From Patescibacteria group bacterium (GTDB lineage: Bacteria; Patescibacteriota; Patescibacteriia; 2-01-FULL-39-33), in assembly GCA_041662745.1 (NCBI GenBank), contig JBAZRV010000005.1, positions 1 to 32,000 on the forward strand: a stretch of 32,000 bases of DNA, in the 5' to 3' direction. Both the position numbers and the translations under genes were made by a program. The notes below the pieces were generated by a model. That model did no database searches and was not told where the DNA came from. It saw nothing but the letters and a program-made list of their open reading frames with translations. Positions 12,264 to 29,141 of the stretch are shown piece after piece; position 1 is the first letter of the stretch; every line of letters starts with the position of its first letter.

Positions 12264-12333
12264 TAGAACGACCGGCATTCATGGCGAATACCGGTCGTTT
12301 GGAAAACAAATTCAAAGCTCAGCGGACTGGATT
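12264..12333. repeat. left direct repeat of the island (att-like): tRNA-Asn 3' fragment plus its downstream trailer/terminator
   Basis: TAGAAC-GACCGGCATTCATGGCGAATACCGGTCGTTTGGAAAACAAATTCAAAGCTCAGCGGACTGGATT matches 27474-27550. By eye there are 4 substitutions and a 6-nt indel. The final 16 nt (12318-12333) equal the tRNA-Asn 3' end, and identity stops at the T-loop. Confidence 0.7.
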
Positions 12334-12502
12334 TCCGTCTCATCTTTTCTTCCGAAAAGATTGCGGTGTCGCGGTCAGAGCTGAATGCTCCCAGGGTCGC
12401 ATCCAGCTACGCTCAACTGCGTTTTATTTTGACAGAATTCAAAATAAAACTTGTTTCGTTCCTGCCCTGTTCGAATCCAACTAAACTGAAAATAGTTTAA
12501 AA

Positions 12503-12553: not shown

Positions 12554-12702
12554 GCTACGGTCTGGAACCATTTTTACCAAGGGTTCTTGGGGTCTTTATG
12601 AGCGTTTTCTACCGGGAATCGGTCGGGGTAAAATGCGACAAATGCGACAGTACTTTATGCTGGTTTTATTGGACAAAATGAAGATTTGATAGTCCAATAT
12701 TA

Positions 12703-13251: not shown

Positions 13252-13254
13252 ATT

Positions 13255-14618: not shown

Positions 14619-14841
14619 CTGATTAATAAATTATTATTTTAATTAAACTTACATTATCACTCTACACCCAAATTGTTATCGAATCAAGATGATTGAACAG
14701 TATTTTCCTATTGCTAACCTCGCAAAAAATATTCAAAAAACCCAGCAAAAAAGCCCTTTTGACAGCCATATAACAAAAGAGTATATTGAAAATAGGCCAG
14801 TCATAATTCAACCAATAACAAAACCCCCCGAAAAAATTTAC

Positions 14842-14870
14842 TTGACAAATTGGTTTTTTAGGAGTATAGT
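14842..14870 (+). promoter_or_regulatory. near-consensus sigma70 promoter with no ORF behind it
   Basis: TTGACA (14842-14847), a 17-nt spacer, then TATAGT (14865-14870). Confidence 0.65.
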
Positions 14871-14876
14871 GACGAA

Positions 14877-15125
14877 AGGATGAGGTGAAAACCACCGCCG
14901 AAAAATGCTATTTCAACAATTCATTAAAATGCCACCCTTAATCGGGCAACGCAAGCTCCCTTCATAGAGCCTCTAGAGTTTTAATGCGCATAGCGGTAAT
15001 ATTTCTAAACCGCAAACCGGAGTAATCCTCTGGTTGGTCTCAATAACATATAGTGAGAGGCCCAGAAGCAGAATTTAACCATGAAAATGGTAAAGTTTTG
15101 CGTCTGGGCCTCTCTTTTATTTTTC
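14877..15125 (+). ncRNA. candidate ~250-nt structured noncoding RNA or regulatory leader ending in a long terminator hairpin
   Basis: It lies between the promoter at 14842-14870 and a perfect 12-bp stem, GAGAGGCCCAGA (15055-15066) / TCTGGGCCTCTC (15103-15114), which has an inner ACCAT-GAAA-ATGGT tip and is followed by TTTTATTTTT. Internal hairpins: GGTG-AAAAC-CACC (14884-14896), GCGGT..ACCGC (14991-15011), AACCGGAG-TAATC-CTCTGGTT (15015-15035). GC content is higher than in the flanks. Only a 20-codon ORF without an RBS is present. Confidence 0.4.
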
Positions 15126-15153
15126 AAATTTTTAACAAATTAACAATAAATCT

Positions 15154-15522
15154 ATGTCAAAGACAAAATTTATCAGCACGATCGACTCCGATAATATCGA
15201 AGTCATCGATCGCGTTCAAAAAGTGGCTGAATTCATCGAATTCGTCAATTGGTCAGCCACTCCGAGCCGATTTCGGCAGCCTAAAAACCAGAAGGATTTA
15301 GCTGCCGAAATCGGAGTGAGTATCGATTCGCTTACTGACTGGAAAAAACATCCGAGCTTCTGGCCGCTAATGCAAATTGCCTTGCGGAAATGGTGCCAAG
15401 ATCAAATCCCCGACATTGTCGGCGGATTATACAGCAATGCCTGCGGCAAAGGCAAAGCGGGCGATGTCAAGATGTTCCTGCAATTAGCGGGGCTGATTGA
15501 GAATAATAAAACTAATAAATAA
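15154..15522 (+). CDS. small HTH protein, phage terminase-small-subunit-like / phBC6A51-type HTH
   Basis: QKDLAAEIGVSIDSLTDWKKHPSFW is an HTH followed by the W-K-K motif common in small-terminase-like proteins. The assignment is by pattern only. Confidence 0.5.
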   Translation: MSKTKFISTIDSDNIEVIDRVQKVAEFIEFVNWSATPSRFRQPKNQKDLAAEIGVSIDSLTDWKKHPSFWPLMQIALRKWCQDQIPDIVGGLYSNACGKGKAGDVKMFLQLAGLIENNKTNK

Positions 15523-15530
15523 CGAAAAAT

Positions 15531-16880
15531 ATGAATGAAAATTCAAACCAAGCCCCAACGGGCTTAAAAATCGTGGAAGTTCCGATCACTGAGCTTCATG
15601 CTTCCGAGTATAACGCTCGGAAGCATTCCAAAGAACAGGCTAATCAGCTCAGGGAGTCGATTGAGCGATTCGGGTTAGTCGATCCGATTATCTGCAATAA
15701 TGCTCCAGAAAGGCAAAATATCGTCATTGGAGGCCACTTCAGGCTTGAGGTAGCCAAAGATCTCGGCTATGCCGAAGTTCCAGTCGTCTACGTTAATATC
15801 CCCAACATTGAGAAGGAAAAGGAATTGAATTTGCGTTTAAACAAGAACACCGGCGAATTCGATTTGGATCTGCTCGCTCAATTCGATGAATCCTTTCTGG
15901 CTGACATCGGGTTTGATAGCGAGGAATTGGATCAAATCTTCCCGACTGAAGAAAATATTGAAATGTTCGATTTGAAGAAAGAACTGGACAAATTAGGCAT
16001 TGGCGAGATTAAAGTCCAGAAAGGCGATATTTATGAGCTGAACGGTTCGAGGCTAATGTGCGGAGATTCCACTCTAGAAGCCGATGTGCTTGCGCTAATG
16101 GGCGATGAAAAAGCCACGATGTGCCTCACAGATCCGCCGTATATTTTAGATTATTTGAAAGGCAAGACAAAAAATCAAGATGGCATTACCGAAGGCTTTG
16201 GCGCTAAGAAAAATCGAGTGTATATCGGAACCGAGGTCTTGCCCGATAATTTCACGGAATTATGGATGAATAACGTCGCAAAAATTCAAAAGCCTGATTT
16301 TTCCATTATCGTTTTTGAGAATCCCAAAAACCTCAGGATAATCTGGAATGAACTCGAGAAGCACTGGAAATACCGCAATACGATTGTCTGGCATCTGCCG
16401 AACCGAGTCCAGGGATTTTCTTCCAAGTACAAGTTTTTCAATAAATCAGACATTGCTTTAGTCGGCACTGGCGGTGAAGTGGAATTGAATTTAGAAGACG
16501 AAACAGAGGAATTGTTCCAGCAGGAATACGAGAATGCCATCTATGCGACCTCAGGCAAGCCTCATTGGGAATCTTACGAAGCTGGCAAGAAAATCTGTCC
16601 GACTGATTTCATTGAGTTTAAAGCGGCTGATGAGAAGTCCTCTGGGCAAGGCATCATCTTCGGCACCAAGCCGATTGAGATCCTTATTCCCTACATCAAA
16701 GTTTTGACCAAACGAGGTGATTTGATTGTTGAAGTCTATGGTGGAAGCGGCAGTACCCTTATCGCGGCCATTAAGATGAACCGTCGCTGTTACCTGATGG
16801 AGAAACAGCCGATTTATGCCGAGGTCATCTTGAACCGCTGGGAAAGAGAAACTGGCAAGAAGCCAGTGAAGATTAACTAG
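15531..16880 (+). CDS. ParB-like nuclease domain fused to an N6-adenine/N4-cytosine DNA methyltransferase (beta class)
   Basis: The N-terminus (YNARKHSKEQANQLRESIERFGLVDPII...GGHFRLEVAK) is a ParB/Srx-type domain. DPPY (16131-16142) precedes the SAM-binding EVYGGSGSTLIAA, which is the order seen in beta-class N6_N4 MTases. No partner nuclease is obvious. Confidence 0.8.
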   Translation: MNENSNQAPTGLKIVEVPITELHASEYNARKHSKEQANQLRESIERFGLVDPIICNNAPERQNIVIGGHFRLEVAKDLGYAEVPVVYVNIPNIEKEKELNLRLNKNTGEFDLDLLAQFDESFLADIGFDSEELDQIFPTEENIEMFDLKKELDKLGIGEIKVQKGDIYELNGSRLMCGDSTLEADVLALMGDEKATMCLTDPPYILDYLKGKTKNQDGITEGFGAKKNRVYIGTEVLPDNFTELWMNNVAKIQKPDFSIIVFENPKNLRIIWNELEKHWKYRNTIVWHLPNRVQGFSSKYKFFNKSDIALVGTGGEVELNLEDETEELFQQEYENAIYATSGKPHWESYEAGKKICPTDFIEFKAADEKSSGQGIIFGTKPIEILIPYIKVLTKRGDLIVEVYGGSGSTLIAAIKMNRRCYLMEKQPIYAEVILNRWERETGKKPVKIN

Positions 16881-16896
16881 CACCTTTGTTAAACGT

Positions 16897-17481
16897 ATGA
16901 TTAAGAGTCCCACCAAAAAAAAGTTGCTCGCTGAATTGGAAAAAAACGGCAATGTCACCATTGCCTGTTTAAAGTCCGGAGTCAACCGAGCGACTTTCTA
17001 CCGGTGGAAGCAAGAGAGTAATGAGTTCAAGGAGAGAGCGGAACAAGCTGAACTATCCGGACGAGAAAATAACTGCGATATTGCCGAACAATCTTTGATG
17101 TTGAAAATCAAAGATAAAGATTTAGGAGCGATTAAATACCTGTTAAGCCATAACTCTCCAAGATATAAAGGCAAGGAAACTAGCATGGCGGTGATTATCC
17201 ACAAGAAGGAAATGCCTGAATCAGAATTTATTAGCATAGAGCAACCTGAAGTATATAATAGAGTTTGTCATGAATATGCAATTGAGCTTCAAGAAAAATA
17301 TAAGTATTTGGGAGAAAAATTACCAAACAAACCCAATGGATTACCGATAGAACTTGATGAACTGCCTCTTTATGAAACATACATTGAAGATTGGAAAGAA
17401 GAAAGAAGAAAGGAAAGGGTCGCAGCAGGACTGGAGCATGAACGACAGGTTATGCCATGGATCGCGCAGAAGGAAGATTAA
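16897..17481 (+). CDS. HTH protein, phage terminase-small-subunit-like
   Basis: NVTIACLKSGVNRATFYRWKQESNEFKERAEQAE is a typical N-terminal HTH of small-terminase / phage HTH proteins. The C-terminal half is acidic and helical. Confidence 0.5.
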   Translation: MIKSPTKKKLLAELEKNGNVTIACLKSGVNRATFYRWKQESNEFKERAEQAELSGRENNCDIAEQSLMLKIKDKDLGAIKYLLSHNSPRYKGKETSMAVIIHKKEMPESEFISIEQPEVYNRVCHEYAIELQEKYKYLGEKLPNKPNGLPIELDELPLYETYIEDWKEERRKERVAAGLEHERQVMPWIAQKED

Positions 17482-17484
17482 TGA

Positions 17485-18567
17485 TTATTCCAAATGGGTG
17501 CTGGCTTTTATAACCAGCAATATGTCATCGTAATTTTGCAAAAATTCCTGCGGTTCTATTTTGTAAGTATTTTCCAATAATTCATCTGCTGTCGGTTTAA
17601 GCTTTGATTTGGATATTTCGTTATAAAAAGCATTGAAATATTTGTCAAACACTTCTTTATCGGTATGATTCTTGAGCCAGCCGAATTTAATCAAAAATGT
17701 GCCGTCGGAATAGATTGAGAATGGCGAAATAGTCGAACTAAGCTTTTTGATTATTGGCGCAAACGAACCATTGGCATTACCAGTACCCCATTTTATCTTG
17801 TCAGTATTCGCTTTGAGATATTCATAAAGCTTAAATACTTTCTCTGCTTCCGCACCTAATTTTTCTTTCGCTTGAATAAAAAAACTTTCTTCATCCCAGA
17901 TTCTCCTTTGGTTAATAGTAGAAACAGACATGCCCTTTTTTACCTCTACGCCAAACAACTTGGGAATCATTATCTCGTACTGCTCGTACTTGTAATATTC
18001 CATTTGAACGGCATAGATATCGAAATGGCTATTCTGGTTGATATAGACAATCAGGTCTTTCAACCTGTCTTCAATCGAATCCATCAGAATAACGAATTTG
18101 ATATTGCCTTGCTGGAGGTTATTTTTAATGGCTTCCAGCATGTCAACTACCTGCTCATCGTCAATATTAAAAAATGCCTTGGCTTTCTCTTCAAAACTGA
18201 CTTTAAATTTATTACTAACCTCACTATTTATCTTAGCGATGAATTCGCTAAAGTCGCTATGGCGCCAAAGCGAAGCTCCGTAATCAAGGGCTTGGGCCAC
18301 GACTGTTCTTTTGTCGGGATTCTTGTAAAGCTTAGTTTCCACGACATAGATGTCGCCATCCTTGTCGATAGCCAAAGCATCGATGGGGCCAGACTCGGTC
18401 GAGAATTCCCTGGCGACAACAAATAGCTTCTTGTCTTCTTCGATTTCATAGACAGGAATGGACTCGGGGTTCTCATGGATATAATTCTGCAAATAGCCTT
18501 CTTTCTCAAAGATAGACTTATCAATCCTCTGAGCCTTTTTGCCGTCTTGAGAAATAATTATGGACAT
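17485..18567 (-). CDS. PD-(D/E)xK nuclease-fold protein (NucS/DUF91-like N-terminal domain) with an uncharacterised C-terminal domain
   Basis: GPIDALAIDKDGDIYVVETKLYKNPDKRTVVAQALDYGASLW contains the D...D-x(n)-E-x-K arrangement of NucS-like endonucleases. Confidence 0.55.
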   Translation of the reverse strand: MSIIISQDGKKAQRIDKSIFEKEGYLQNYIHENPESIPVYEIEEDKKLFVVAREFSTESGPIDALAIDKDGDIYVVETKLYKNPDKRTVVAQALDYGASLWRHSDFSEFIAKINSEVSNKFKVSFEEKAKAFFNIDDEQVVDMLEAIKNNLQQGNIKFVILMDSIEDRLKDLIVYINQNSHFDIYAVQMEYYKYEQYEIMIPKLFGVEVKKGMSVSTINQRRIWDEESFFIQAKEKLGAEAEKVFKLYEYLKANTDKIKWGTGNANGSFAPIIKKLSSTISPFSIYSDGTFLIKFGWLKNHTDKEVFDKYFNAFYNEISKSKLKPTADELLENTYKIEPQEFLQNYDDILLVIKASTHLE

Positions 18568-18571
18568 AGGA

Positions 18572-18901
18572 TTATGATTGGCCTACCTTAATACGGGATT
18601 GGATAAAGTCGCTATATAGCTTTTGACCCTCAGGATCGCCTGAAGCGACTACCCCGTCTTTGTTAAGTAGGATGGTTAAATTCAGTGTCTTGGCCGGCTT
18701 ATTGGCAAAATACAGATAAAGGATGCCGGGGATAATAGCGCAACATAATAGCAATAAGGCTAAGAGGCAGCTGCCTTTCTTGGCAGGAATCTGCTTCTGG
18801 TAATTGACCACTTTGTCAGAGTGGCTGATTAGAAGCCAGCCTGAGCCGTTAACGGCCATATAGTCGATGAAGTCATTTAATACTTCGTTTGATTCGCTCA
18901 T
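18572..18901 (-). CDS. small membrane protein, function unknown
   Basis: 109 aa with a central hydrophobic helix (CLLALLLLCCAIIPGILYLYF). It lies 4 nt upstream of the nuclease-fold gene on the same strand. Confidence 0.45.
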   Translation of the reverse strand: MSESNEVLNDFIDYMAVNGSGWLLISHSDKVVNYQKQIPAKKGSCLLALLLLCCAIIPGILYLYFANKPAKTLNLTILLNKDGVVASGDPEGQKLYSDFIQSRIKVGQS

Positions 18902-18982
18902 AGAGTTTTTGGGTTAATAATAAAGCCAGCTAAGTGGTTTTAGCTGGCTTGAGAGAATTTGCATAAACACAAAGCCCCACGC

Positions 18983-19110
18983 CAGCTGAGCCTTACGGCC
19001 CCATACCCGTTTCCAGGCATGACCCAACAAAGAGTCGCTGATCGTGGGGATCAGTATCTTTGTTGGGTATTTTGAGCCATGCCCGCCAAATGACGGGTTT
19101 AGGCTCTGCT
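18983..19110. other. ~130-nt nested imperfect hairpin (candidate structured RNA or recombination site) between the nuclease operon and the recombinase gene
   Basis: There are five concentric complementary pairs. GAGCCT (18988-18993) pairs with AGGCTC (19101-19106). ACCCGT (19005-19010) pairs with ACGGGT (19092-19097). GGCATG (19016-19021) pairs with CATGCC (19078-19083). CCCAACAAAGA (19023-19033) pairs with TCTTTGTTGGG (19056-19066). CTGATC (19038-19043) pairs with GATCAG (19049-19054). Confidence 0.5.
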
Positions 19111-19286
19111 TTCGCTATAAATTGTACTTTTATTGTACTATAAAAGGTTCGACTTTGTCCACCATACTAGCTTAAATAACAGAATCCGCGAAGTCGAGTT
19201 ATCAACAGGTTGCCTACTGCCGGGGTCTGGACTCCCAGCCGCCAGTCCGGCATCATGTCCCTTACATAAGAAATAACTTCAAATTT

Positions 19287-20612
19287 ATGGGACTAATAAG
19301 TGACAAGGAAATGGCGGTTTTAGGGCATACCAGGACGTTTGAGGCGGTCTTACCGGTAAAGTACTGTCTTTATGCGAGAAAGTCGACCGAGGACGACGAG
19401 AGGCAGGCTTTGAGCATCGAATCTCAGGTTAAAGAGATGCTGGAGCAAGCCCAAAAAGACAAACTGAATATTGCGGAAATAAAGAGAGAATCCCACTCAG
19501 CCAAAGACTCAGGTGAAAGGCCAGTATTCAATAAACTGATGAGGGAGATTAAGGAGGGAAAATTCGACGGCATCCTGACCTGGGCTCCAGATAGATTGAG
19601 CCGTAACGCTGGCGACTTGGGCAGTATCGTCGATTTGATGGACAGAGGCATGATCAAGGAGATAAGAACGCACGGCCAAACATTCATCAACTCCCCTAAT
19701 GAGAAATTCCTGCTGATGATTCTGTGTTCCCAAGCCAAATTAGAAAATGATAATAAGGGCGAGAATGTTAAAAGAGGATTGAGAGCCAAAGTGGAAATGG
19801 GCTGGAGGCCGGGCATGCCACCGCTCGGTTATCTTCACGACAAGAATGGCGACAAAGGCAAAAGAAGAGCTTTTACTGATCCCAAAAGAGCGCCGATCAT
19901 GAAGCAATTGTTTGATAAAGTTGCCTATGAGGGCTGGAGCGGTCGAGCCATATTCAAATGGCTCGATGAAATGGATTTCAGAACTAGATCGGGCAAGAAG
20001 ATGACCTTAAGCTCAATCTACCTCGTACTCAAAAATACTTACTACTATGGCTACTTTGAATATCCAGTGGGCAGCGGCAATTGGTATAAAGGCGGACACG
20101 AGCCGATTATAACAAAAGAAACTTTCGATGAAGCTCAAATACAACTCACGGTAGCGCCAAAATCCAAACCAGGCACCAAAGAATTCAGCTTCACTAAAAT
20201 GATAAAATGCGGAGCTTGCGGATCAGGTGTAACGGCAGAAGAGAAATACAAAAAACTGAGCGATGGCTCAGTCAAAAAATATATCTATTACCACTGCAGC
20301 AGATTCAATGATCTTAAATGCAAAGAATCCTACATCAGGGAAGAAAACTTAACTATTCAGCTAGTCAAATTAATAGATAAAATCGACATTAATCTTTTGA
20401 AAACCCAAAAGAGAATTAAGGATGAGATAGACCGCTATCAAAAATTCACTAAAAATATCCTAGGTGTAGATAACAAAATAAAGATGCCGGAGATAAATAT
20501 GAAAGACTATGCCAGATATGTTTTGACGGATGGCACTAGAGAAGAAAAAAGAGAACTGCTTAATTGCCTGGATTCTGAATTAAAATTGATGGGGCAGAAG
20601 ATTTATATTTAA
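19287..20612 (+). CDS. large serine recombinase (resolvase domain + recombinase domain + zinc ribbon)
   Basis: CLYARKSTEDDERQALSIESQ contains the Y-x-R-x-S-T nucleophile motif (Ser codon 19383-19385). ILTWAPDRLSRN is present. The zinc ribbon is CGACGSG...YYHCSRFNDLKC. Confidence 0.85.
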   Translation: MGLISDKEMAVLGHTRTFEAVLPVKYCLYARKSTEDDERQALSIESQVKEMLEQAQKDKLNIAEIKRESHSAKDSGERPVFNKLMREIKEGKFDGILTWAPDRLSRNAGDLGSIVDLMDRGMIKEIRTHGQTFINSPNEKFLLMILCSQAKLENDNKGENVKRGLRAKVEMGWRPGMPPLGYLHDKNGDKGKRRAFTDPKRAPIMKQLFDKVAYEGWSGRAIFKWLDEMDFRTRSGKKMTLSSIYLVLKNTYYYGYFEYPVGSGNWYKGGHEPIITKETFDEAQIQLTVAPKSKPGTKEFSFTKMIKCGACGSGVTAEEKYKKLSDGSVKKYIYYHCSRFNDLKCKESYIREENLTIQLVKLIDKIDINLLKTQKRIKDEIDRYQKFTKNILGVDNKIKMPEINMKDYARYVLTDGTREEKRELLNCLDSELKLMGQKIYI

Positions 20613-20699
20613 CGCATAATTGCAATATCTCATTCCAATTAATAATACATCTGGTTAATATATTGCCACAGGTAGCGCTGAAAATCTTAAAAAGCTAAA

Positions 20700-22169
20700 T
20701 TATGACGCTTTTAAAAAAATATATGTATTCCTCAATGCAGGAAAAATTCTTAACAGCTTATTAGAATTTTTGTCAAAATCAGGCAAATTTTTAATTGCAA
20801 TCAAAAAATACCTAGCAATTTTCTCTTCGTTAGAGAATAATTGATAAAAATCATTTTTTATGGACATCTTTGAACCATAAGAGCCAAACTTAGCAATAAA
20901 AATTAAATAATATCCAATAAACATAAAATTAGATGTGCCATAAACCTTTTCCTTTTCTAATGACAAAACTAATTCCATGTCAATTTCATTTGCTTTTAAT
21001 AATGCTCTTAAAATAAAAATTTTCTGGTATAAGTAAGGCGACGATTTCAGAACGCTTATTAATAATCGTTGAATATCAACCCTATCTATGTAATCCTCTA
21101 GATAATAACAAATTTCTTTTGAGTAGCATGGATCGAAAAGATTATTTTTTAAAATGCTTTCCAACGGGTGGCTTAAATGTAATCTTTTGAATTTATAGAT
21201 GCAAAACTTAAAAACGGTCTTATTAATTTTGTCAACTGCTCTATTTATTACAGCATCGTCCCACATTTCTTTCAGTTGATCATCAACGAAATCGCAATTA
21301 TCATCATCAAAATCGGACATTAAATAATTAACAAAATCCATAGTGTCAGAATAATTATTTTTATTGGTTGTATGTTTCGAATAATTAATTATCTCAGTTT
21401 TACCGCCATTGAGATGCAGATTTAATGGCCTCAGTAATTCCGTCAATTTGCTTAATGCCCTTCTAACGCCGATTTCATCATCCGAAAATACCCTTATATC
21501 ATCCACAAATCTATAATAATTAAATCCAGACTCGATCATGGACTGATCAACCTCGTATAAATATACATTTGCCAAAAATGAAGCACAATCATTGCCCTGG
21601 CATAATCCAATCTCATCTTCACACCAAGTATTTAAAAGATGGCTTAACTTATCTGAGATTTCTTTTTCTGTTCCTAAATATTTTAATATCTCGATGATTT
21701 TTTTGATTTTGATATGTTCAAAAAATGCGTTGATATCGGTTTTTAAAAGAAACCCATTCGGATTATTAATAAAATTATCATTTGATTTCTTTATAAAACT
21801 TTTCCAACTTTCAATATTTTCATTCCTATTCAAAAAATAATTTTTCTTTTTTGATATCCTATAACCGAAACTGATTTGGCTTGAAACTAGCAACTTATCA
21901 ATATCTTTGCTAAATCTGTTTAGTATTAATTGAAAATACAACCTATCTAGGATAGAAATGAAATATCCTGGCCTCAATATTAAATTCGGCTTCGGTATGT
22001 CTAATATCAATAAGCTATGAGGAGTATAATTATCAAAATCAATTTCATAAAAAATTGATGGATTATTAATATAATCACGATAATTAATGACATCAGGCCA
22101 AAAATCATCGTTTTCATCCTTACTGATATTGCTTACGGCTACATTAATTTCTTCCCTAGTGAAATTCAT
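20700..22169 (-). CDS. stand-alone reverse transcriptase of the Abi/UG (defence-associated) type with a helical C-terminal domain
   Basis: RT motifs appear in the expected order: IPKPNLILRPGYFISILDRLYFQLI (1), LKTDINAFFEHI (2/A), GLCQGNDCASFLANVYLYEVD (4/B), YYRFVDDIRVFS (5/C, with FVDD at 21498-21509), LHLNGGKTEI (6/D). About 230 aa of helical repeat-like sequence follow. There are no endonuclease, maturase or Cas domains. Confidence 0.8.
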   Translation of the reverse strand: MNFTREEINVAVSNISKDENDDFWPDVINYRDYINNPSIFYEIDFDNYTPHSLLILDIPKPNLILRPGYFISILDRLYFQLILNRFSKDIDKLLVSSQISFGYRISKKKNYFLNRNENIESWKSFIKKSNDNFINNPNGFLLKTDINAFFEHIKIKKIIEILKYLGTEKEISDKLSHLLNTWCEDEIGLCQGNDCASFLANVYLYEVDQSMIESGFNYYRFVDDIRVFSDDEIGVRRALSKLTELLRPLNLHLNGGKTEIINYSKHTTNKNNYSDTMDFVNYLMSDFDDDNCDFVDDQLKEMWDDAVINRAVDKINKTVFKFCIYKFKRLHLSHPLESILKNNLFDPCYSKEICYYLEDYIDRVDIQRLLISVLKSSPYLYQKIFILRALLKANEIDMELVLSLEKEKVYGTSNFMFIGYYLIFIAKFGSYGSKMSIKNDFYQLFSNEEKIARYFLIAIKNLPDFDKNSNKLLRIFPALRNTYIFLKAS

Positions 22170-22234
22170 ATAAACATATTCATTAAAACTGACTAATCCT
22201 TATGATTATTCATCTTAAATTTTCGAACATACAA

Positions 22235-22651
22235 TTACAATTTCGATACTAGCTTATTTTCGATTTTAGACATAGACTTATTAAAATTTCTTTGAGTTAA
22301 TTGGTGTTCCCAAATCCTCAGAACCTTCCATCCCATTCTTTTTAATTTTCTTCTATTCTTAACATCCCGATGAATATTAGCTTCAATTTTAGCGCGCCAA
22401 TACTTCTTTGGCAAGCGTTTTTTCGTATTGCTAAAATTGTAACCGTGCCAAAAATCGCCATCAATAAACACGGCGATTTTTTTGCGTGGCAGGGCGATAT
22501 CCGGCTTGCCCGGCGCCCTTTTATAATGCTTTTGGAAATATACGCCTCTTTTCCTTAATTCACCGAAAACTAAAAGCTCCACTTTGGTGTTCTTGCCCCT
22601 GATCTTAGACATTATCTCGCTTCTTTTCTCTTTTGAAAACACGTCTGCCAT
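22235..22651 (-). CDS. vsr: very-short-patch repair endonuclease
   Basis: MADVFSKEKRSEIMSKIRGKNTKVEL...GKPDIALPRKKIAVFIDGDFWHG...GWKVLRIWEHQL closely parallels E. coli Vsr (MADVHDKATRSKNMRAI...GRPDFVV...IFTHGCFWH...GWRVLIVWEC). Confidence 0.9.
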   Translation of the reverse strand: MADVFSKEKRSEIMSKIRGKNTKVELLVFGELRKRGVYFQKHYKRAPGKPDIALPRKKIAVFIDGDFWHGYNFSNTKKRLPKKYWRAKIEANIHRDVKNRRKLKRMGWKVLRIWEHQLTQRNFNKSMSKIENKLVSKL

Positions 22652-22690
22652 AATTCACTGTTGGGATTATTTTCTATTCATTTTCTAATA

Positions 22691-22699
22691 TGATATAAT
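22691..22699 (+). promoter_or_regulatory. extended -10 promoter for the LexA-methyltransferase gene
   Basis: TGATATAAT (TGnTATAAT) with only a weak -35 (TTTCTA, 22671-22676). It lies 50 nt upstream of the ATG at 22750. Confidence 0.5.
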
Positions 22700-22710
22700 A
22701 TTGTCATACA

Positions 22711-22726
22711 TGTGGATAACTCCACA
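22711..22726. promoter_or_regulatory. 16-bp perfect palindrome, candidate operator
   Basis: TGTGGA-TAAC-TCCACA lies between the -10 element and the start codon, inside the 98-bp divergent region shared with vsr. Its left half plus spacer (TGTGGATAA) is also a perfect DnaA-box 9-mer. Confidence 0.45.
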
Positions 22727-22749
22727 GGAATAAAAAATAACTAGAAAAT

Positions 22750-24300
22750 ATGCCCACACTTACTAAGAAACAAAAAAACGTTCTTGATTTTATTGAGGGC
22801 TATCGCGATAGGAAGCACTATTCCCCCTCCCATGAAGAGATCAAGAATCACTTCAAGCTATCTTCCGTTTCAACTGCGCATCATTATATCTCCAAGTTGC
22901 AGAAGGCCGGATATCTGAAAAAAGAAGATAACCAGCCGAGATCAATAAACCTCTGCTTCGAACCGGTAATCCAGATTGATCTATTGGGCAATATTACTGC
23001 CGGCCAGCCAATCGAAGCGATTGAATTAGGCAAGGAAACAATCGCTATTCCTAGCTATGGACTTAATAGGAATAGTAGCTATTACGCTCTCAAAGTCAAG
23101 GGCGACAGCATGATCGATGAAGGGATATTCGACGGCAGCATCGTAGTCATCAAGAAGCAATCAACTGCTGAAAACGGCCAGACCGTAGTCGCCGTGATAG
23201 ATGATAACGAGGCAACACTGAAAATGATATACCGCGAAAAGAATAAATTCCGCTTGCAGCCAGCCAACCAAAGCATGCTTCCCTTTTACCGCAAAGAAGT
23301 GGAAATCCGCGGGGTAGTGATAAAAATCATCAGGGATTTATATAAAGAAGAGCAGAAATTCAGAACTCTTGATCTATTCGCAGGCGTAGGTGGCATCAGG
23401 CTGGGATTTGAAAAAGCCGGTTTCGAGACCGTATTCGCTAATGACTTTGAAAAAGCCTGCGCAGATACTTATAACAAGAACTTCAAGACTTCAAAATTAG
23501 TAGTAGAGGATATTAGGAGAATCGGAATCGATGATCTGCCTGAATTCGACTTCCTGCTCGGCGGCTTTCCTTGCCAGGCATTCTCAATAGCTGGCTACCG
23601 CAAAGGATTCGAAGATGACAAAGGGCGGGGCAACCTATTCTTTGATGTCGCAAGGATAATAGAAACCAGAAGGCCGACAGGATTCCTAATGGAAAACGTC
23701 AAGAACCTTAAAAGCCATGATAACGGACGGACATTCAAAATCATCAAAGAAACCCTGGAAAACCTCGGCTATCATATCAAAGCCAGGGTTTTGAATAGCG
23801 TGGAGTACGGCAATATCCCCCAGAACCGTGAAAGGATTTACATCGCCGGATTCAGGGACAAAAGGCATTGCGATAATTTCGAATTCCCAAAGCCGGTGAA
23901 ACTGACAAACAAGGTTGCAGATCTTCTCGAAAAAAAAGTTGATGAAAAATATTATTACAATGGAAAGCCTCTTTACCAAAAGCTTAAGGATTTCGTGAAA
24001 GAAAAAAATAAAGTCTACCAATGGCGCCGCCAATACGTCCGTGAAAATAAAAAAGGCGTCTGTCCGACGCTGACTGCGAATATGGGGATGGGCGGCCATA
24101 ATGTTCCGATTATCAAGGATGACAAAGGCATTAGGAAGCTTACGCCGTTAGAATGTTTTAGGCTCCAGGGATTTCCAAAGAGCTTCGAGCTTCCAGCTAA
24201 TTTGGCTGATTCAGCTCTTTACAAGCAGGCCGGCAATTCAGTTACAGTTACAGTATTGGAAGCGGTAGGCAAGCAAATGATGCAGGCTGTCAGCGACTAA
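22750..24300 (+). CDS. fusion protein: LexA-type repressor (wHTH + S24 peptidase) joined to a DNA (cytosine-5) methyltransferase
   Basis: LexA part: the HTH SVSTAHHYISKLQKAGYL, Ala84-Gly85 in ITAGQP (22999-23004), GDSM with Ser120 (23107-23109), and ATLKM with Lys158. MTase part: DLFAGVGG (I), GGFPCQAFS (IV, Cys codon 23572-23574), ENVKNL (VI), QNRERIYI (VIII), QAGNSV (X). No stop codon or frameshift separates the two parts. Confidence 0.85.
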   Translation: MPTLTKKQKNVLDFIEGYRDRKHYSPSHEEIKNHFKLSSVSTAHHYISKLQKAGYLKKEDNQPRSINLCFEPVIQIDLLGNITAGQPIEAIELGKETIAIPSYGLNRNSSYYALKVKGDSMIDEGIFDGSIVVIKKQSTAENGQTVVAVIDDNEATLKMIYREKNKFRLQPANQSMLPFYRKEVEIRGVVIKIIRDLYKEEQKFRTLDLFAGVGGIRLGFEKAGFETVFANDFEKACADTYNKNFKTSKLVVEDIRRIGIDDLPEFDFLLGGFPCQAFSIAGYRKGFEDDKGRGNLFFDVARIIETRRPTGFLMENVKNLKSHDNGRTFKIIKETLENLGYHIKARVLNSVEYGNIPQNRERIYIAGFRDKRHCDNFEFPKPVKLTNKVADLLEKKVDEKYYYNGKPLYQKLKDFVKEKNKVYQWRRQYVRENKKGVCPTLTANMGMGGHNVPIIKDDKGIRKLTPLECFRLQGFPKSFELPANLADSALYKQAGNSVTVTVLEAVGKQMMQAVSD

Positions 24301-25481
24301 TCATCCTCGGATTCCCCAGACCTATCTTCCTTTACCTCCCCCGCAAATTCTTCATAAGATCCGACTTTAGTGAAGTCAATGTCATATTTTCCTTCTCCAA
24401 TTTTGTATATTACGACTGAGTCCAAGCCGATCTCCTCTAATTTGCCATAAGTCAAAAGATCTCTTTCTTTCAGATCCAGTATGTCTCGAAGAAGCCACTG
24501 GCCCAGTGCCGAATTAGGATTGCTCATCAACGCCTTTGATCCGTCCTGGCATACCTTGGCTGACATTTCAGCGCCATTCGGCAGGAGCAGGGTGAATGAA
24601 GTGTCGCGCGGAGGGAAAAATCCCGGATATTCAGAATGTATCAATGCCGGGATCGGAATATACACTTCATCAGGATTTCTCGGCCTGCCTAAGGCATTCC
24701 ATTGATTGAGTCCGCTCCTGGCCGGCACTTCTTTAATTCCTTTTTTTGATGAATAAAGCGGAAGAAAAACATGAGTAAGAGCCTTAATGGGCGCAAAAAC
24801 AACTTCCCGTTCAACTTTCCTGAAAACATTTTCAAGCGCATCAAAGGGATTCTCCAGTATTTTTACCGGAAAATCCAATAATGCATCGGATAAATTAAAC
24901 CTTTTGTATAATGTGCTCTTGGTCACATTGAAGGAGTACTCATTGCTGCCGTCGCTGAATGAAATCGCATTCGCATTCTTTCCTGATTTGATATTCCTTA
25001 TTTTTGATAAATTTACCAGATCCATTCCTGATTCATAAACCAAAATACCGCCCTTTTTCCGAGTAACGCAGTGATACATCATTTTTTCCAAACCGAATAT
25101 TCTTTTTGTCGCGTTAATCCGCTCATTCCTCAGCCCGGCTATCTTAATGACTTTTCCCTTATCATCCAAATTTCGGAATAAATTATGCTCGCTATTGAAT
25201 TCAGCGATCTTCTGCATAGTCGCTCCATTGCCTTCAAGGAAAGTTTTGATTCCGATTCCAACTTTATTCTTAGCCGCATCAGCTGAACAGTCGGTTCTGG
25301 ATAAATTGTCGGCATTAAAAGACTTGCAAAATAAATTTTCTGCAATCCTGTATTGGATATACGGCTCCTGGCTTTCTGAAAACAAACGGGACAACGATCC
25401 GATCGTACGGAGCATCTCCTGATAATATGATATGCTTTTCTTGTCCTGCTTATTCAGAAACATATAATGATATTTTCTCAC
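24297..25481 (-). CDS. putative type II restriction endonuclease partnering the C5 methyltransferase
   Basis: The call rests mainly on context: the gene converges on the MTase gene with a 4-nt overlap at the 3' ends (24297-24300). A candidate PD-(D/E)xK-like segment is TDCSADAAKNKVGIGIKTF. No family was recognised. The start may be the ATG at 25463 (MFLNK...), just after a promoter. Confidence 0.5.
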   Translation of the reverse strand: MRKYHYMFLNKQDKKSISYYQEMLRTIGSLSRLFSESQEPYIQYRIAENLFCKSFNADNLSRTDCSADAAKNKVGIGIKTFLEGNGATMQKIAEFNSEHNLFRNLDDKGKVIKIAGLRNERINATKRIFGLEKMMYHCVTRKKGGILVYESGMDLVNLSKIRNIKSGKNANAISFSDGSNEYSFNVTKSTLYKRFNLSDALLDFPVKILENPFDALENVFRKVEREVVFAPIKALTHVFLPLYSSKKGIKEVPARSGLNQWNALGRPRNPDEVYIPIPALIHSEYPGFFPPRDTSFTLLLPNGAEMSAKVCQDGSKALMSNPNSALGQWLLRDILDLKERDLLTYGKLEEIGLDSVVIYKIGEGKYDIDFTKVGSYEEFAGEVKEDRSGESEDD

Positions 25482-25500
25482 TTTACCGCTATTGTGTCAA
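25472..25500 (-). promoter_or_regulatory. promoter for the putative endonuclease gene (leaderless or very short leader)
   Basis: The minus strand reads TTGACA (25500-25495), a 17-nt spacer, then GAAAAT (25477-25472). The ATG at 25463 follows 8 nt after the -10 element. Confidence 0.45.
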
Positions 25501-25524
25501 TTCGAATATAAACTGCCGAAAGCC

Positions 25525-25584
25525 AGTCTAGAACCAAAACGACCGGTTCGCCAGTGGCGGATCGGTCGCGCAGGAAAACAAGTT
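25525..25584 (-). terminator. terminator after the asparaginase operon; third, partial copy of the island-end repeat
   Basis: GTCTAGAACCAAAACGACCGG (25525-25545) is identical to 27472-27492. A different 16-nt hairpin body follows, then CGGTCG, then GGAAAACAAGTTC (25572-25584), which is identical to 27518-27530. No tRNA fragment follows. The minus strand gives the stem CGACCG..CGGTCG followed by TTTTGG. Confidence 0.6.
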
Positions 25585-25622
25585 CTTGGTTTTTATATTT
25601 GGATATAATAATGAAATTTAAT

Positions 25623-26654
25623 TTAGGTGGTAATCTCACCAACAATACTAGTATTAATCGCTCGTGATAAAGCTTTCGCTGATTTTAGTCCTTGTGCCAA
25701 AACCCACATAAATTTAACTTGAGCCATAACATCAGTTAAATCGCCAGCTGGAATAGCCCCCGCATCCAATGCTAATTTTCCTGGTTCATAAATATCCATA
25801 TGGGTTTGACCGCCGACAAATTTAGTCGAAACAATAACTGGAATTTTAAGAACATTGACGGATTCACTGATAACTGGAAGAAGTGAGTACTCATTTTCAC
25901 TCGGAACATTACCTGCACCCAATGATTTTAGTAACAAACCTTCGACCCCCCCCAATCGCAAAATTTTCGTAAGAATTTTTGGCTCTAGCCCTGGCACTAA
26001 ATCAATTGCAAGAATTCCTCGCTGGAATTCTGCATTAACTTTTAATGGTGTTTTTCTTTCCACCCTGAATGCTTCTGGAATAAAATGAACACCTACGGCG
26101 TCTATCCTGGCTAAATGTGGAAAGGCTGGCGAATCAAATGCAGGGAATCTTGCTTCGCTGGTTTTTATAGCTCTGACGGCTCGCAGGACGCTATCGCTAA
26201 AACAAATCATTACTTCCGCAATTTTCTCATCGCAAGCTTGAAGAGCTGTCTTCATTGAATTTTCTAAATTGAAGCGTGCGTCTGTACCATAGGCAACTAA
26301 GGGAAGTTGTGAGCCCGTAAAGACAATAGGAATTTTTAACCCTCTACCAAGCGCAAGAGCAACACCGCCAGCTGTATATGTCATAGTGTCAGTACCATGC
26401 GTAATAATAATAGCGTCCGCTTGATTATGGATTTCTTTGATTTTAAGGGCTAATTTTTTCCAATGGGTCGGGTTAATATTTGTGCTATCCAGACGTTCAA
26501 GCTCTAAGAAAGAAACATCTGCCATTTCTTGTAATGATGGAACTATAGCAAGAATCTCCTTTATGCTTTTAGCGGGCTTCAAAACTCCCGATGGGTCTGG
26601 AACCATTGCAATAGTTCCGCCAAATCCTAGTATTACAATTTTTCGTTTCTTCAT
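25623..26654 (-). CDS. ansA: L-asparaginase, type I (cytosolic/archaeal-like)
   Basis: ILGFGGTIAM (Thr nucleophile motif), ITHGTDTM and the overall length are typical of type I asparaginases. A GatD-like role cannot be excluded. Confidence 0.8.
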   Translation of the reverse strand: MKKRKIVILGFGGTIAMVPDPSGVLKPAKSIKEILAIVPSLQEMADVSFLELERLDSTNINPTHWKKLALKIKEIHNQADAIIITHGTDTMTYTAGGVALALGRGLKIPIVFTGSQLPLVAYGTDARFNLENSMKTALQACDEKIAEVMICFSDSVLRAVRAIKTSEARFPAFDSPAFPHLARIDAVGVHFIPEAFRVERKTPLKVNAEFQRGILAIDLVPGLEPKILTKILRLGGVEGLLLKSLGAGNVPSENEYSLLPVISESVNVLKIPVIVSTKFVGGQTHMDIYEPGKLALDAGAIPAGDLTDVMAQVKFMWVLAQGLKSAKALSRAINTSIVGEITT

Positions 26655-26657
26655 AAG

Positions 26658-27173
26658 TTATTTTTCGTTTATTTCTTTTGAGGCAATTATCTCACCGTCT
26701 TTTCTTTCATCAATAGTATAACCGACTTTGGCATGCCCTTGTTTTAATAATTCAGTTTCTGCTGGTTCTTCAGCGATTAATTTGCCAAAAACTAAGCTGC
26801 AATCATTTGCCCGAGCGACAGAGTCAGCGATTCCAAGCAGCTGCTCGCCGATTTTTTTACCTCGCAAATCAGGCCTGACGTATCTATCCGCAATATACAA
26901 ATAATTAGCCGAACTGCCATCTTTTTTATTATAAATTTTAAACAGTTTTAGATTTATAAAATAACGTTGATCTTCGCCTGTAAGATTGATTCTGTAGGCG
27001 GTCGATTTCGCTAAATCAACATCCAATAACTTTACGCCAACGGTTATAAGTTCGGAATAATTGTTTATCTTGCCTAATCTGGTTTCCAGAGCTTGAATTT
27101 GGCCATCGACTCTGATTCGATATTCATCATCAACAATTAAGCTGTAATCCCTAGTTACGGCAGAATCATACAA
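26658..27173 (-). CDS. GNAT-family N-acetyltransferase
   Basis: YIADRYVRPDLRGKKIGEQLLGIADSVARAN is a GNAT motif A (V-x-P-x-x-R-G-x-x-I-G-x-x-L). The stop lies 3 nt from the asparaginase start. Confidence 0.65.
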   Translation of the reverse strand: MYDSAVTRDYSLIVDDEYRIRVDGQIQALETRLGKINNYSELITVGVKLLDVDLAKSTAYRINLTGEDQRYFINLKLFKIYNKKDGSSANYLYIADRYVRPDLRGKKIGEQLLGIADSVARANDCSLVFGKLIAEEPAETELLKQGHAKVGYTIDERKDGEIIASKEINEK

Positions 27174-27233
27174 GGTGCTGTCTTTAGCCGCCTGGATAAA
27201 TTTAATATATATTTGTTTAGTGGCTCCAATAGT

Positions 27234-27383
27234 TTATCGCGCCATGCCTTCAGCCGATGACAAAAGACGTTCTCTTTCAGCCAAAGACAACTCGGACAAC
27301 CTTTCTGGATTGTGCAAATAATCGGCTAATTGGGGCTCGCCTTCATACTGTTCCCGATCCTCGTAACGTCCAAATTTTTCCAT
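27234..27383 (-). CDS. possible 49-aa acidic small protein at the head of the GNAT-asparaginase operon
   Basis: The reverse complement reads ATG GAA AAA TTT GGA CGT TAC GAG... (MEKFGRYEDREQYEGEPQLADYLHNPERLSELSLAERERLLSSAEGMAR). It falls below the ORF-track length cut-off. It sits directly after an extended -10 promoter, with no RBS. Confidence 0.3.
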   Translation of the reverse strand: MEKFGRYEDREQYEGEPQLADYLHNPERLSELSLAERERLLSSAEGMAR

Positions 27384-27406
27384 AAATATCATTCATTTAT
27401 ATGTGT

Positions 27407-27414
27407 ATTATACA
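27407..27414 (-). promoter_or_regulatory. extended -10 promoter for the small-ORF/GNAT/asparaginase operon
   Basis: The minus strand reads TGTATAAT, 23 nt upstream of the ATG at 27383. Confidence 0.4.
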
Positions 27415-27473
27415 CTATTTTAACTAAAAACAAAAGTCGAACGAACTAACTTCGAACTTTGCCCCCAATCGGT

Positions 27474-27550
27474 CTAGAACCAAAACGACCGGCATTCATG
27501 ACGAATGTCGGTCGTTTGGAAAACAAGTTCAAAGCTCAGCGGACTGGATT
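27474..27550. repeat. right direct repeat of the island (att-like), overlapping the 3' end of the intact tRNA-Asn
   Basis: It matches 12264-12333 (see that entry). It comprises the tRNA 3' 16 nt (27535-27550), the 17-nt trailer, and the terminator hairpin GACCGGCATTC..GAATGTCGGTC. Confidence 0.7.
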
Positions 27551-27606
27551 CGAACCAGTAACCTACCGGTTAACAGCCGGTTGCTCTACCATTGAGCTAC
27601 CGCTGA
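27535..27606 (-). tRNA. tRNA-Asn (anticodon GTT)
   Basis: A 72-nt cloverleaf folded by hand: acceptor TCAGCGG/CCGCTGA, D stem GCTC/GAGC, anticodon stem ACCGG/CCGGT with loop CTGTTAA (GTT = 27574-27572), T stem ACTGG/CCAGT with loop TTCGAAT, and discriminator G. CCA is not encoded. Confidence 0.9.
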
Positions 27607-27643
27607 ACCTTGAACTTGTTTTATTTTTTTAAGTTCATCCAAT

Positions 27644-27791
27644 TTAACAGCCGGCGAGCCGGTTGCTCTTCCTGGGCAGCGCTGAACGCTCCCATTGGTC
27701 GCGTTCATCGACACTCGACTTCGCCTTGAGGCTCGTCTTGTTTCTGCCCGTCCATCCGCTAAAGCGGATCGGACCCATTTCGCTACCGCTG
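27644..27791 (-). pseudogene. tRNA-Asn 5'-half pseudogene whose D-loop is replaced by a ~114-nt structured insert
   Basis: The minus strand reads TCAGCGGTAGC (27791-27781, equal to tRNA positions 1-11), then 114 nt (27780-27667), then GAGCAACCGG[CTCGCCGG]CTGTTAA (equal to the D-stem 3' strand through the anticodon loop, with an 8-nt insertion). Similarity to the tRNA ends exactly after the anticodon loop. It is preceded by its own copy of the leader (AAAACAAGTCCAAGGT). Confidence 0.55.
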
Positions 27792-27829
27792 AACCTTGGA
27801 CTTGTTTTATCGATCAAAAATAACTTAAT

Positions 27830-27859
27830 TATATTAGCAAAAAAATCGCCGTTTGTCAA
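27830..27859 (-). promoter_or_regulatory. promoter for the pseudo-tRNA / tRNA-Asn transcription unit
   Basis: The minus strand reads TTGACA (27859-27854), an 18-nt spacer, then TAATAT (27835-27830). It lies just downstream of the rpoD stop. Confidence 0.5.
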
Positions 27860-27881
27860 TAATTTACCGGCTGTGGAAAAC

Positions 27882-29141
27882 TTAGTAATCCCTTAATTTT
27901 TCTATTCCTTGGATTTTTTCAATCTTCTCCAGCGCCTTGGCTTCAATCTGGCGGATGCGCTCGCGGGTAACGTCAAACTCCTTGCCCACCTCTTCCAGCG
28001 TATGCGCCACGCCGTCGCGCAGACCGAAACGCATTTCCAACACCTTTTGTTCGCGCGGCGTCAACTCGCTGATCACCTGCCGGACATAATCGCTCAAGAT
28101 GCGCAAAGCGGCGGCGCGATCCGGCGTCAGCGTCTTCTGGTCTTCAATAAAATCCTCCAGCACCGAATCTTCACTGTCGTCGCCCACGGGCGTGCCCAGC
28201 GATATCGTCTCTTGCGAAATCTTTAAAATATGCAAAACCTTTTCCAGCTCCTCGCCCATTTCCGCGGCGATCTCTTCGGGCATGGGTTCGCGCCCCAGAT
28301 CCTGCACCAAGCGCCGTTCCACTTGCTGAAAACGATTGATGTTCTCCACCATATGGACGGGAATGCGGATAGTGCGCGACTGATCGGCCAGCGACCGGGT
28401 AATGGCCTGGCGAATCCACCAAGTGGCGTAAGTGGAAAACTTATAGCCCTTATGATAGTCAAACTTTTCTACGGCGCGGAACAAGCCGATGTTGCCTTCC
28501 TGAATCAGATCCAACAGCGACAGATTCTTGCCGGTGAACTTTTTGGCAATGGAAACCACCAGGCGCAGATTGGCCTTGATCAGTTTTTGTTTGGCTTCCA
28601 CATCGCCCCGTTCAATCCGTTTGGCCAAAGAGATTTCTTCTTCGGTGTGCAACAAGGGCACCTTGCCGATTTCGCGCAGATACATCTGAATGGAATCGGC
28701 GGAAATGTCGCCCAAATCAATATTCTCCCCCAAAGTAATCTTGGCGGCTTTCTTTTCCTTGGCGGTCAGTGGCGGTGGCGGTACGCCGGTCGGCGGTTTG
28801 CCCAGCAAGGACGGCGTTTCCACGACGGCGATATTGGCATAATCCAAATCATCCAGTATGCCTTCGTACTGGTCAACGTATTCCTCTATCTCCGGGTAGA
28901 GCAACGCCAATTCCTGCTCGGTTACAAAACCGCGGATCCTGCCCTTCTTCATTACCGCTTCAATCTCCAGCGGATTGGGCAGAACTGCCTGATGCGCCGT
29001 TTCTTTGGCTCGCGCTTTGGCCTGGTGCGGTTTCTTGCCCCTGGCCGGCTTGCGCGCTTTGCTCGGCTTGCGCGCCGGCTTCTTCTTGGCCTTGGCTTTG
29101 ACCGGCTTCTTGGCCGGTTTTTTCTTTTTTATTTTTGGCAT
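27882..29141 (-). CDS. rpoD: primary RNA polymerase sigma factor (sigma-70 family)
   Basis: Region 2 ([30 protein letters not shown]), region 3, and region 4.2 ([26 protein letters not shown]) are present. The N-terminal ~50 aa are an unusual Lys/Ala/Pro-rich basic tract. Confidence 0.9.

Follow-up and report, generated by a model that had tools for sequence, protein, structure and literature searches.

Reverse transcriptases (RTs) of the UG/Abi type are placed in Class 1 when their C-termini are built of helical repeats, and UG20, UG21, UG23, UG9, UG19 and UG32 have all been assigned to this class (Mestre et al. 2022, PMC9226505). AbiK, Abi-P2 and AbiA are reported to be protein-primed and to polymerise long stretches of random DNA, for which neither template nor primer is needed. 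The priming site differs by family, lying in a loop of the fingers in AbiK and Abi-P2, in the linker between the RT and the alpha-helical repeat (alpha-Rep) domain in AbiA, and in the palm in DRT4. DRT4 is a single-gene system that assembles as a hexamer (a dimer of trimers) and, primed on Tyr125, synthesises random purine-rich single-stranded DNA (ssDNA) independently of a template; phage SSB-like proteins, or increased levels of deoxynucleoside triphosphates (dNTPs), act as its trigger, and abortive infection follows. It also carries an RNase site (H160/D192), and its residues Q23 and D29 are reported to position nucleotides in place of a template. According to a 2026 preprint, Class 1 DRTs catalyse untemplated synthesis. 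Here we describe an RT gene that lies directly behind vsr, the gene of a very-short-patch repair endonuclease, in the first 32,000 nucleotides (nt) of contig JBAZRV010000005.1 of a Patescibacteria group bacterium (assembly GCA_041662745.1), a stretch referred to below as the window. With a rough probability of 70%, we read its product as a single-gene Class 1 UG/Abi polymerase, which would be oligomeric, would prime on its own tyrosine, would produce untemplated ssDNA, and would act in abortive-infection defence free of any non-coding RNA (ncRNA), the gene being horizontal cargo that landed behind vsr.

Family placement and fold of the reverse transcriptase

The reading frame of the RT is fully open over 489 codons, without truncation, and its start codon agrees with the N-termini of all homologues in the alignment. 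Pfam RVT_1 was found on residues 70-262 (1.3e-14). The alignment A1, which comprises the window RT and 21 homologues (22 sequences) and is the source of all statements on invariance within the clade, revealed that P59, K60 and R66 of the fingers are invariant, together with the catalytic residues of the core motifs, as shown in Table 1. The initial annotation had listed every core RT motif, with FVDD at 21498-21509 as motif C, and A1 bears this out; none of the acidic residues of motifs A and C is missing, D145, D223 and D224 being invariant. The clade carries a signature of its own, consisting of an N-terminal DDFWPD with D18, Y30 and D32, of which D26 and D32 are still invariant, and D18 and D22 nearly so, once UG21/UG32/UG9-like relatives join the alignment.

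Classification against the UG/Abi RT profiles of PADLOC gave UG-type models as the best matches, with UG21 (205 bits, 4.7e-61, residues 6-462) and UG32 (202 bits, 4.1e-60, residues 7-486) at the top, followed by UG9_small (179 bits), UG23 (171 bits), and then UG19 and UG20. All eleven best matches are of UG type (UG21, UG32, UG9, UG23, UG19, UG20, Drt8, UG33, UG34 and UG22), with E-values from 1e-61 to 1e-28, whereas CRISPR-associated and generic RT models reached 1e-15 to 1e-26. Ten members of the clade were tested in the same way, and the best model was UG32 in eight and UG21 in two. The NCBIfam matches, for which the bit score was compared with the curated cut-off, all span the RT core only and fall far under their cut-offs: the group II RT/maturase model TIGR04416, which is the best of them by E-value, scores 79.3 bits against 300, the retron St85 model NF038233 50 against 235, Drt4 (NF041749) 45.8 against 450, Drt3a 63 against 200, Drt2 38 against 390, and Drt5 30 against 550.

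An AlphaFold2 (AF2) model built from A1 (pLDDT 90.1, pTM 0.86) has a fingers/palm core that ends near residue 262, and beyond it helices only (about 263-488); the all-helical stretch of about 225 amino acids (aa) matches the roughly 230 aa first estimated. When the C-terminal 227 residues were modelled alone, 15 helices and no strands were obtained (pLDDT 87.7), and the Foldseek matches of this domain, weak but consistent, were armadillo, HEAT and alpha-Rep solenoids only, with a HEPN or nuclease fold absent from them. The initial annotation had left the choice between an alpha-repeat and a HEPN-like domain to structure prediction, and the outcome is an ARM/HEAT-like repeat. At full length, the best Foldseek matches in the PDB were DRT4/UG15 (9vdo, 9l9s), AbiK (7r07) and DRT6 (9wy8), with TMq of 0.58-0.61 over 514-530 aligned columns, followed by AbiA and Abi-P2, while group II intron and retron RTs match an RT core of about 275 columns only. 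In these models the architecture is fingers plus palm, with the alpha-helical repeat domain where a thumb would be. Because the UG-group profiles, the AF2 model and Foldseek agree, the RT is assigned to Class 1, and its identity as a stand-alone member of this class, whose characterised members polymerise DNA without a template, is supported. The integrity of the gene, its family placement and its fold are established by these results.

Among 5.8 billion clusters, the nearest proteins share no more than 41-48% identity with the window RT; their named hosts are Pacebacteria, Falkowbacteria, Saccharibacteria and unclassified Patescibacteria, and single homologues were found in metagenome-assembled genomes of Acidobacteriaceae and Limisphaerales. 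An exhaustive HMMER search over 1.84 billion 50%-identity representatives returned only about ten clusters better than 1e-55, after which the score steps from 251 to 171 bits and the identity is at most 29%. The proteins of this next tier score 280-344 bits on the UG21/UG32 models, above the 205 and 202 bits of the window RT. In a maximum-likelihood tree of 74 sequences, from which the published seed sequences are absent, the window RT falls within a monophyletic clade of 24 rows (SH-aLRT 100) that lies beside, not inside, the rows labelled UG21 and UG32 and apart from the UG9-like rows, and whose stem (0.77) is the longest internal branch of the tree. Judged by these sequence comparisons, the clade is a distinct, rare and long-branched sub-lineage in the UG21/UG32 neighbourhood, mostly from Patescibacteria.

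Genomic setting and proposed function

The RT gene has a guanine-cytosine (GC) content of 28.3%, while vsr has 37.9%, the LexA-Dcm methyltransferase gene beyond it 44%, the restriction enzyme gene 41.4%, the recombinase gene on the other side 41.9%, and the whole 1.02-Mb genome 44.6%, so the earlier remark that the RT is far more AT-rich than vsr and dcm holds good. Among 393 open reading frames (ORFs) of at least 300 aa (mean 46.1%, standard deviation 4.2%), its GC is the second-lowest, about four standard deviations under the mean. The neighbourhoods of 13 homologues were examined as well, giving 14 loci with the window, and in all 14 the RT is richer in AT than its flanks, by 4 to 21 points. 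The RT was not found in 40 related genomes. In the window, a pair of 67-nt direct repeats, the right copy at a tRNA-Asn gene, encloses an island of about 15.3 kb that carries the RT and a convergent large serine recombinase (Table 1). Given the low GC, the absence from the 40 relatives, the repeats at tRNA-Asn, the mobile and defence neighbours, and the AT-richness at 14 loci, the RT is best read as horizontally acquired, a mobile cargo of the tRNA-Asn island beside the serine recombinase; its foreign composition as such is established. Direct and inverted repeats around the RT gene were considered as insertion scars and rejected, being only AT-rich chance matches.

Table 1. Positions of the RT gene, its motifs and spacers, and the other features of the window.
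Feature	Position	Strand	Evidence or remark
Stand-alone Class 1 UG/Abi RT gene	20700..22169	-	489-aa ORF, RVT_1, PADLOC, AF2, Foldseek
N-terminal signature DDFWPD, aa 21-26	22092..22109	-	Invariant in the 22-sequence clade; D18, D26 and D32 close by
RT motif A, TDINAFFEHI, aa 144-153, catalytic D145	21711..21740	-	D145, F150, E151, H152, I153 invariant
RT motif B, CQGNDCASFLANVYL, aa 190-204	21558..21602	-	Q191, S197, F198, N201, Y203, L204 invariant; G192 nearly
RT motif C, FVDD, aa 221-224	21498..21509	-	D223, D224 invariant; F221 is the family consensus
Motif D/E region, LNLHLNGGKT, aa 249-258	21396..21425	-	N250, L251, H252, K257, T258 invariant
C-terminal alpha-helical repeat domain (alpha-Rep, ARM/HEAT-like), aa 263-489	20703..21383	-	Separate AF2 model, Foldseek
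Spacer from vsr stop to RT start, 65 nt	22170..22234	-	Sequence; same strand, 21.5% GC
Spacer between the stops of the RT and the convergent serine recombinase, 87 nt	20613..20699	.	Sequence
vsr, very-short-patch repair endonuclease	22235..22651	-	TIGR00632, 109.7 bits vs cut-off 97.85; Pfam Vsr, 6e-23
LexA(HTH+S24)-Dcm methyltransferase	22750-24300	+	Pfam, PADLOC
NgoFVII-like restriction enzyme	24297-25481	-	Pfam, PADLOC
Large serine recombinase, convergent with the RT	19287..20612	+	Resolvase, Recombinase and Zn_ribbon_recom domains
67-nt direct repeat, left copy	12267..12333	+	94% identical to 27484-27550
67-nt direct repeat, right copy	27484..27550	+	Overlaps the 3' end of tRNA-Asn (27534-27606, -)
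Second AT-rich block, left island end	12703-14618	-	29% GC; three genes in tight succession, one of them for a Schlafen AlbA_2-domain protein
ParB-N6/N4 DNA methyltransferase fusion	15531-16880		Island cargo
Helix-turn-helix (HTH) protein	16897-17481		Island cargo
NucS/PD-(D/E)XK-like protein	17485-18567		Island cargo; matches PADLOC candidate system PDC-S11
LOOT RNA (Rfam RF03000), full-length	18988-19105	-	90.9 bits vs gathering score 46.4

The neighbours of the RT vary by locus, the common theme being mobile DNA and defence. The RT of one homologue locus (L016) is embedded in a Type I restriction-modification operon, hsdM ... hsdS-RT-Fic-hsdR, where it begins 2 nt past hsdS; another (L019) lies 35 nt behind a Type III mod-res pair; a third (L023) is part of a Type I island that also holds genes for HEPN and Fic proteins; and a fourth (L018) has an IceA/Dam-type restriction-modification system and a serine recombinase nearby. 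TIR-domain genes lie 5' of the RT in L021 and L024, a serine recombinase directly adjoins it in L018, L020 and L024, as in the window, and a tRNA or tmRNA gene is located about 0.2-1.4 kb away in L001, L003, L020 and L021. As context, the restriction-modification, TIR, Fic and HEPN neighbours, together with the tRNA/tmRNA islands, suggest a defence role.

A Fic gene was seen just 3' of the RT homologue twice (L016 6001-8841, L023 6001-9509), and a 303-aa TIR_2 gene 5' of it twice (L021 4966-7461, L024 4268-7455). The two TIR proteins are only 38% identical to one another although their RTs are close relatives, a divergence that suggests a slot for changing effectors and not a constant partner. 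For the subclade of P0009, P0010 and P0013, a conserved 303-aa partner encoded upstream was likewise considered and rejected on the divergence of the TIR proteins, the protein in L020 being unrelated and none being present in the window. That the family has no conserved partner is established for the loci compared.

Two more RVT_1 genes are present in the genome (C2:162749-163417, +; C4:57908-58576, -), the first an open frame of 353 aa that scores 97 bits and the second one of 380 aa that scores 87 bits, both unrelated to the window RT clade.

In the mechanism that we propose, the island would have integrated at tRNA-Asn, with the RT landing just downstream of vsr. The enzyme would oligomerise through its alpha-Rep domain, prime on one of its own tyrosines and synthesise ssDNA without template or ncRNA once triggered by a phage product, and the build-up of this ssDNA, or its binding by a phage protein, would bring about growth arrest (abortive infection). 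On the precedent of AbiK, DRT4 and DRT6 the oligomer would be a hexamer, and on that of DRT4 and DRT6 the phage product could be an SSB-like protein. Conservation points to two candidate priming residues, namely Y282, which is invariant in the clade and located in the lower-confidence RT/alpha-Rep linker of the AF2 model, and Y30, which is nearly invariant and located in an N-terminal loop. More speculatively, and by analogy, the acidic DDFWPD motif might line the dNTP/template cleft and help to position nucleotides in place of a template. The initial annotation had proposed a defence RT of the template-independent class. Of this proposal, the class membership stands on the PADLOC matches and the fold, while untemplated protein-primed synthesis and the defence role, like oligomerisation, are features that we infer from the characterised relatives.

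Several observations weigh against this proposal. Neither Y282 nor Y30 is invariant in the wider UG21/UG32/UG9-like group, and no priming Tyr can be assigned from the alignment. Out of 98 columns of high conservation, 10 are altered in the window RT, and it has a motif B substitution, P190C, that is unique among the 22 members, so its activity is possibly reduced. No member of the clade was found in the phage and viral-contig collections searched. In addition, the defence prediction for UG21 and UG32 has been rated 'inconclusive' (Mestre et al. 2022, PMC9226505).

The vsr cassette and alternative explanations

The gene vsr, which precedes the RT, is part of a cassette together with a restriction enzyme in convergent orientation and LexA(HTH+S24)-Dcm, a fusion transcribed divergently. 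The spacers on the two sides of the RT gene have the lengths first given for them, 65 and 87 nt, but the view that vsr and RT form a meaningful pairing did not survive the comparison of loci, and a conserved pairing was rejected. An RT adjoined by vsr was seen in none of the 13 homologue loci, and three loci hold the cassette but no RT. One of them, L043, encodes a methyltransferase of 85% identity along with the same NgoFVII-type enzyme and vsr, after which come unrelated ORFs of 219 and 129 aa, while L041 and L042 contain vsr, LexA-Dcm and a PD-(D/E)XK enzyme. Another locus, L040, has LexA-Dcm with a Bsp6I-type enzyme and no vsr. At the DNA level, L043 is homologous to the window over 22305-25476 only, the match ending inside vsr, and the GC content steps by 10-16 points at the junction of RT and cassette. 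This end of homology and the GC step together show an insertion of the RT beside an independent cassette, and that it stands behind vsr seems to be a chance outcome of that insertion, with no new partnership involved. That the pairing is not conserved is established for the loci compared.

The initial annotation had placed the RT behind vsr under a possibly SOS-controlled promoter. An arrangement of this kind, in which vsr and the RT are a functional unit, co-transcribed from the divergent LexA-Dcm control region so that DNA damage or RecA activation switches the polymerase on, is to be weighed against these data, and we consider it unlikely. The two genes share a strand, and read-through transcription from vsr into the RT is plausible, since the 65-nt spacer holds no terminator-like site and its promoter-like matches are not above shuffled expectation. 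Against the unit stand the lack of vsr beside any of the 13 homologues, the three cassettes devoid of an RT, the homology to L043 that stops within vsr, and the GC step; read-through, if any, would be a by-product of the insertion site. The adjacent methyltransferase has a complete LexA module, recA is present in the genome, and from cassette to cassette there is high conservation of the vsr/lexA-dcm control region, yet the palindrome in that region is not conserved in related cassettes, its left half alone being kept. The tight placement of the RT behind restriction-modification genes in L016 (2 nt) and L019 (35 nt) is also in line with such a unit. Improbable as well is a broader version, in which the RT was captured into the vsr transcription unit under the LexA-Dcm divergent promoter, licensing an untemplated polymerase upon DNA damage or RecA activation, and in which the clade as a whole would be an accessory embedded in restriction-modification loci (hsdS-RT-Fic-hsdR, mod-res-RT, vsr-RT) that backs up failed restriction.

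The LexA-Dcm fusion is very common in Patescibacteria metagenomes; its homologues there are 68-100% identical among the matches listed (120 of 8000 significant), and all but one of these 120 have the full three-domain architecture; the fusion is absent from the 40 related genomes. By eye, the AG cleavage site and the GDSM serine motif of the LexA module look present. The control region between vsr and lexA-dcm (22652-22749) is strongly conserved between cassettes. Its perfect 16-bp palindrome (22711-22726) is peculiar to the window, related cassettes keeping only the left half, TGTGGATAAC, and the word TAGAAAAT is conserved too, in flanking inverted pairs. From sequence alone, TGTGGATAAC with the inverted TAGAAAAT words is a better operator candidate than the palindrome.

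It is decidedly unlikely that the window holds only what is left of a defence gene, now inactive or in decay. Residue 190 of motif B is Cys in the window RT and Pro in 21 of the 21 other members, the count of deviating conserved columns is above that of most members (family range 0-20), and the composition is extremely foreign. However, most of the deviations are conservative, and other members have similar or higher counts (9 in P0014, 15 in P0022 and 20 in P0023), while the untruncated 489-codon frame is fully open and the catalytic Asp, Gln and Lys residues are all intact.

The preferred reading, a Class 1 polymerase free of ncRNA, also has to be set against an RT templated by an overlooked RNA partner, in the manner of a Class 2 DRT, a retron or a group II intron, which we regard as very unlikely. 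Four homologue loci (L001, L002, L003 and L024) have 300-750 nt of non-coding DNA upstream of the RT, but these long spacers are taken up by tRNA or tmRNA genes, and other loci leave 1-50 nt on either side. The gaps narrow to 1-2 nt before the RT (L020, L016) and to 12-53 nt behind it (L023, L022, L024, L018), and because the gaps fall so low, there is no conserved non-coding space for a Class 2-type ncRNA across the RT family. The window's own 87-nt spacer between RT and recombinase is too short for such an RNA and has no terminator-like hairpin; in neither spacer did promoter or terminator signals exceed the shuffled expectation. Though the group II RT/maturase model is the best NCBIfam match by E-value, it covers the core only and lies far under its cut-off, as do the retron, Drt2 and Drt3a models, and a helical-repeat C-terminus is the hallmark of Class 1. 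In Rfam, neither a group II intron nor a retron RNA was found at the RT locus, and no match adjoined the RT in the window or the homologue loci scanned, all of which is evidence of a negative kind. A test for a diversity-generating retroelement gave no pair of template and variable repeats, the direct repeats of at least 35 nt within 12000-28000 being att-like or tRNA-related only, and a test for a CRISPR-associated RT gave no cas genes among the RT neighbours, the Cas1_IIIb model covering the RT core alone.

A full-length LOOT RNA, the sole copy in the genome, lies 181 nt upstream of the serine recombinase gene and divergent from it (Table 1). As the ncRNA of the RT it was rejected, since 11 other RT loci lack it, the recombinase gene stands between it and the RT, and there is but a single genomic copy.

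Highly improbable, finally, is a role of the RT in the mobility or maintenance of the island together with the serine recombinase, the two forming a module for retro-mobility or cDNA integration and not for defence: homologous recombinases (43-59% identical to one another) directly adjoin the RT in 4 of the 14 loci (window, L018, L020 and L024), but the other ten lack one, the orientation differs between loci (two convergent, one divergent, one tandem), the similarities of recombinase and RT are only loosely congruent, the family is abundant without the RT, with six matches (E <= 1e-20) in the 1.02-Mb genome and hits to it in 29 of the 41 genomes searched (the window's own and 40 relatives), and we know of no Class 1 UG/Abi enzyme engaged in mobility. 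A co-evolving module of RT and recombinase was rejected on that abundance, which makes the adjacency background; we take it to mark island cargo and not two genes that work together. Three of the six genomic recombinase copies, the island's own included, are of the same subfamily of about 440 aa (56-100% identity); copies such as C4:52200-53453 and C3:138179-139468 have differing cargo beside each, for example radical-SAM genes.

Comparison with known systems

The analysis defines a rare, compact clade beside UG21/UG32, and an RT of 480-500 aa with neither partner nor ncRNA would be an easy test case for untemplated, protein-primed synthesis on this side branch and for the identity of the priming residue. 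The recurrent placement in Type I, II and III restriction-modification operons is context evidence for defence. Ultra-small episymbionts are usually held to depend mainly on restriction-modification, and the RT in Patescibacteria hints that they also bear Abi-type systems. The proposed partnership with vsr, which was the main novelty claim of the initial annotation, fails as a conserved or designed feature, and the interest of the RT, which is modest, rests on the recurrent restriction-modification embedding and the host range.

Compared with the described systems, the window RT shares the core RT motifs and the defence-island setting with the Class 2 DRTs (DRT2, DRT3a, DRT9) and the retrons, but these have an adjacent ncRNA and no alpha-Rep domain, whereas the window RT family has no conserved space for such an RNA. 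AbiK, Abi-P2 and AbiA are single-protein systems that match its fold over both the RT and the alpha-Rep domain; however, their sequences are only about 13-16% identical to it and none of them is among the 25 best PADLOC matches. They also differ in setting, being lactococcal and P2-prophage polymerases, while the window clade occurs in Patescibacteria and no phage-borne members were found. AbiA-large has a HEPN domain, which the window RT lacks.

DRT4 (UG15) and DRT6 (UG12), the best full-length structural matches, are likewise stand-alone and consist of fingers, palm and alpha-Rep without a thumb, though their sequence identity to the window RT is about 14-16%. A1 shows no conserved Tyr at the putative counterpart of Tyr125 of DRT4. 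With respect to UG21 and UG32, the two models tie (205 against 202 bits) and the window clade stands beside the labelled rows; moreover, a fusion with an HTH domain has been described for UG32 (PMC9226505), whereas the window RT is without one. Nevertheless, UG21 and UG32 resemble it in being the best profile matches over nearly the full length, in their size of about 490-520 aa, in standing alone, and in the order of an RT domain followed by a helical-repeat C-terminus.

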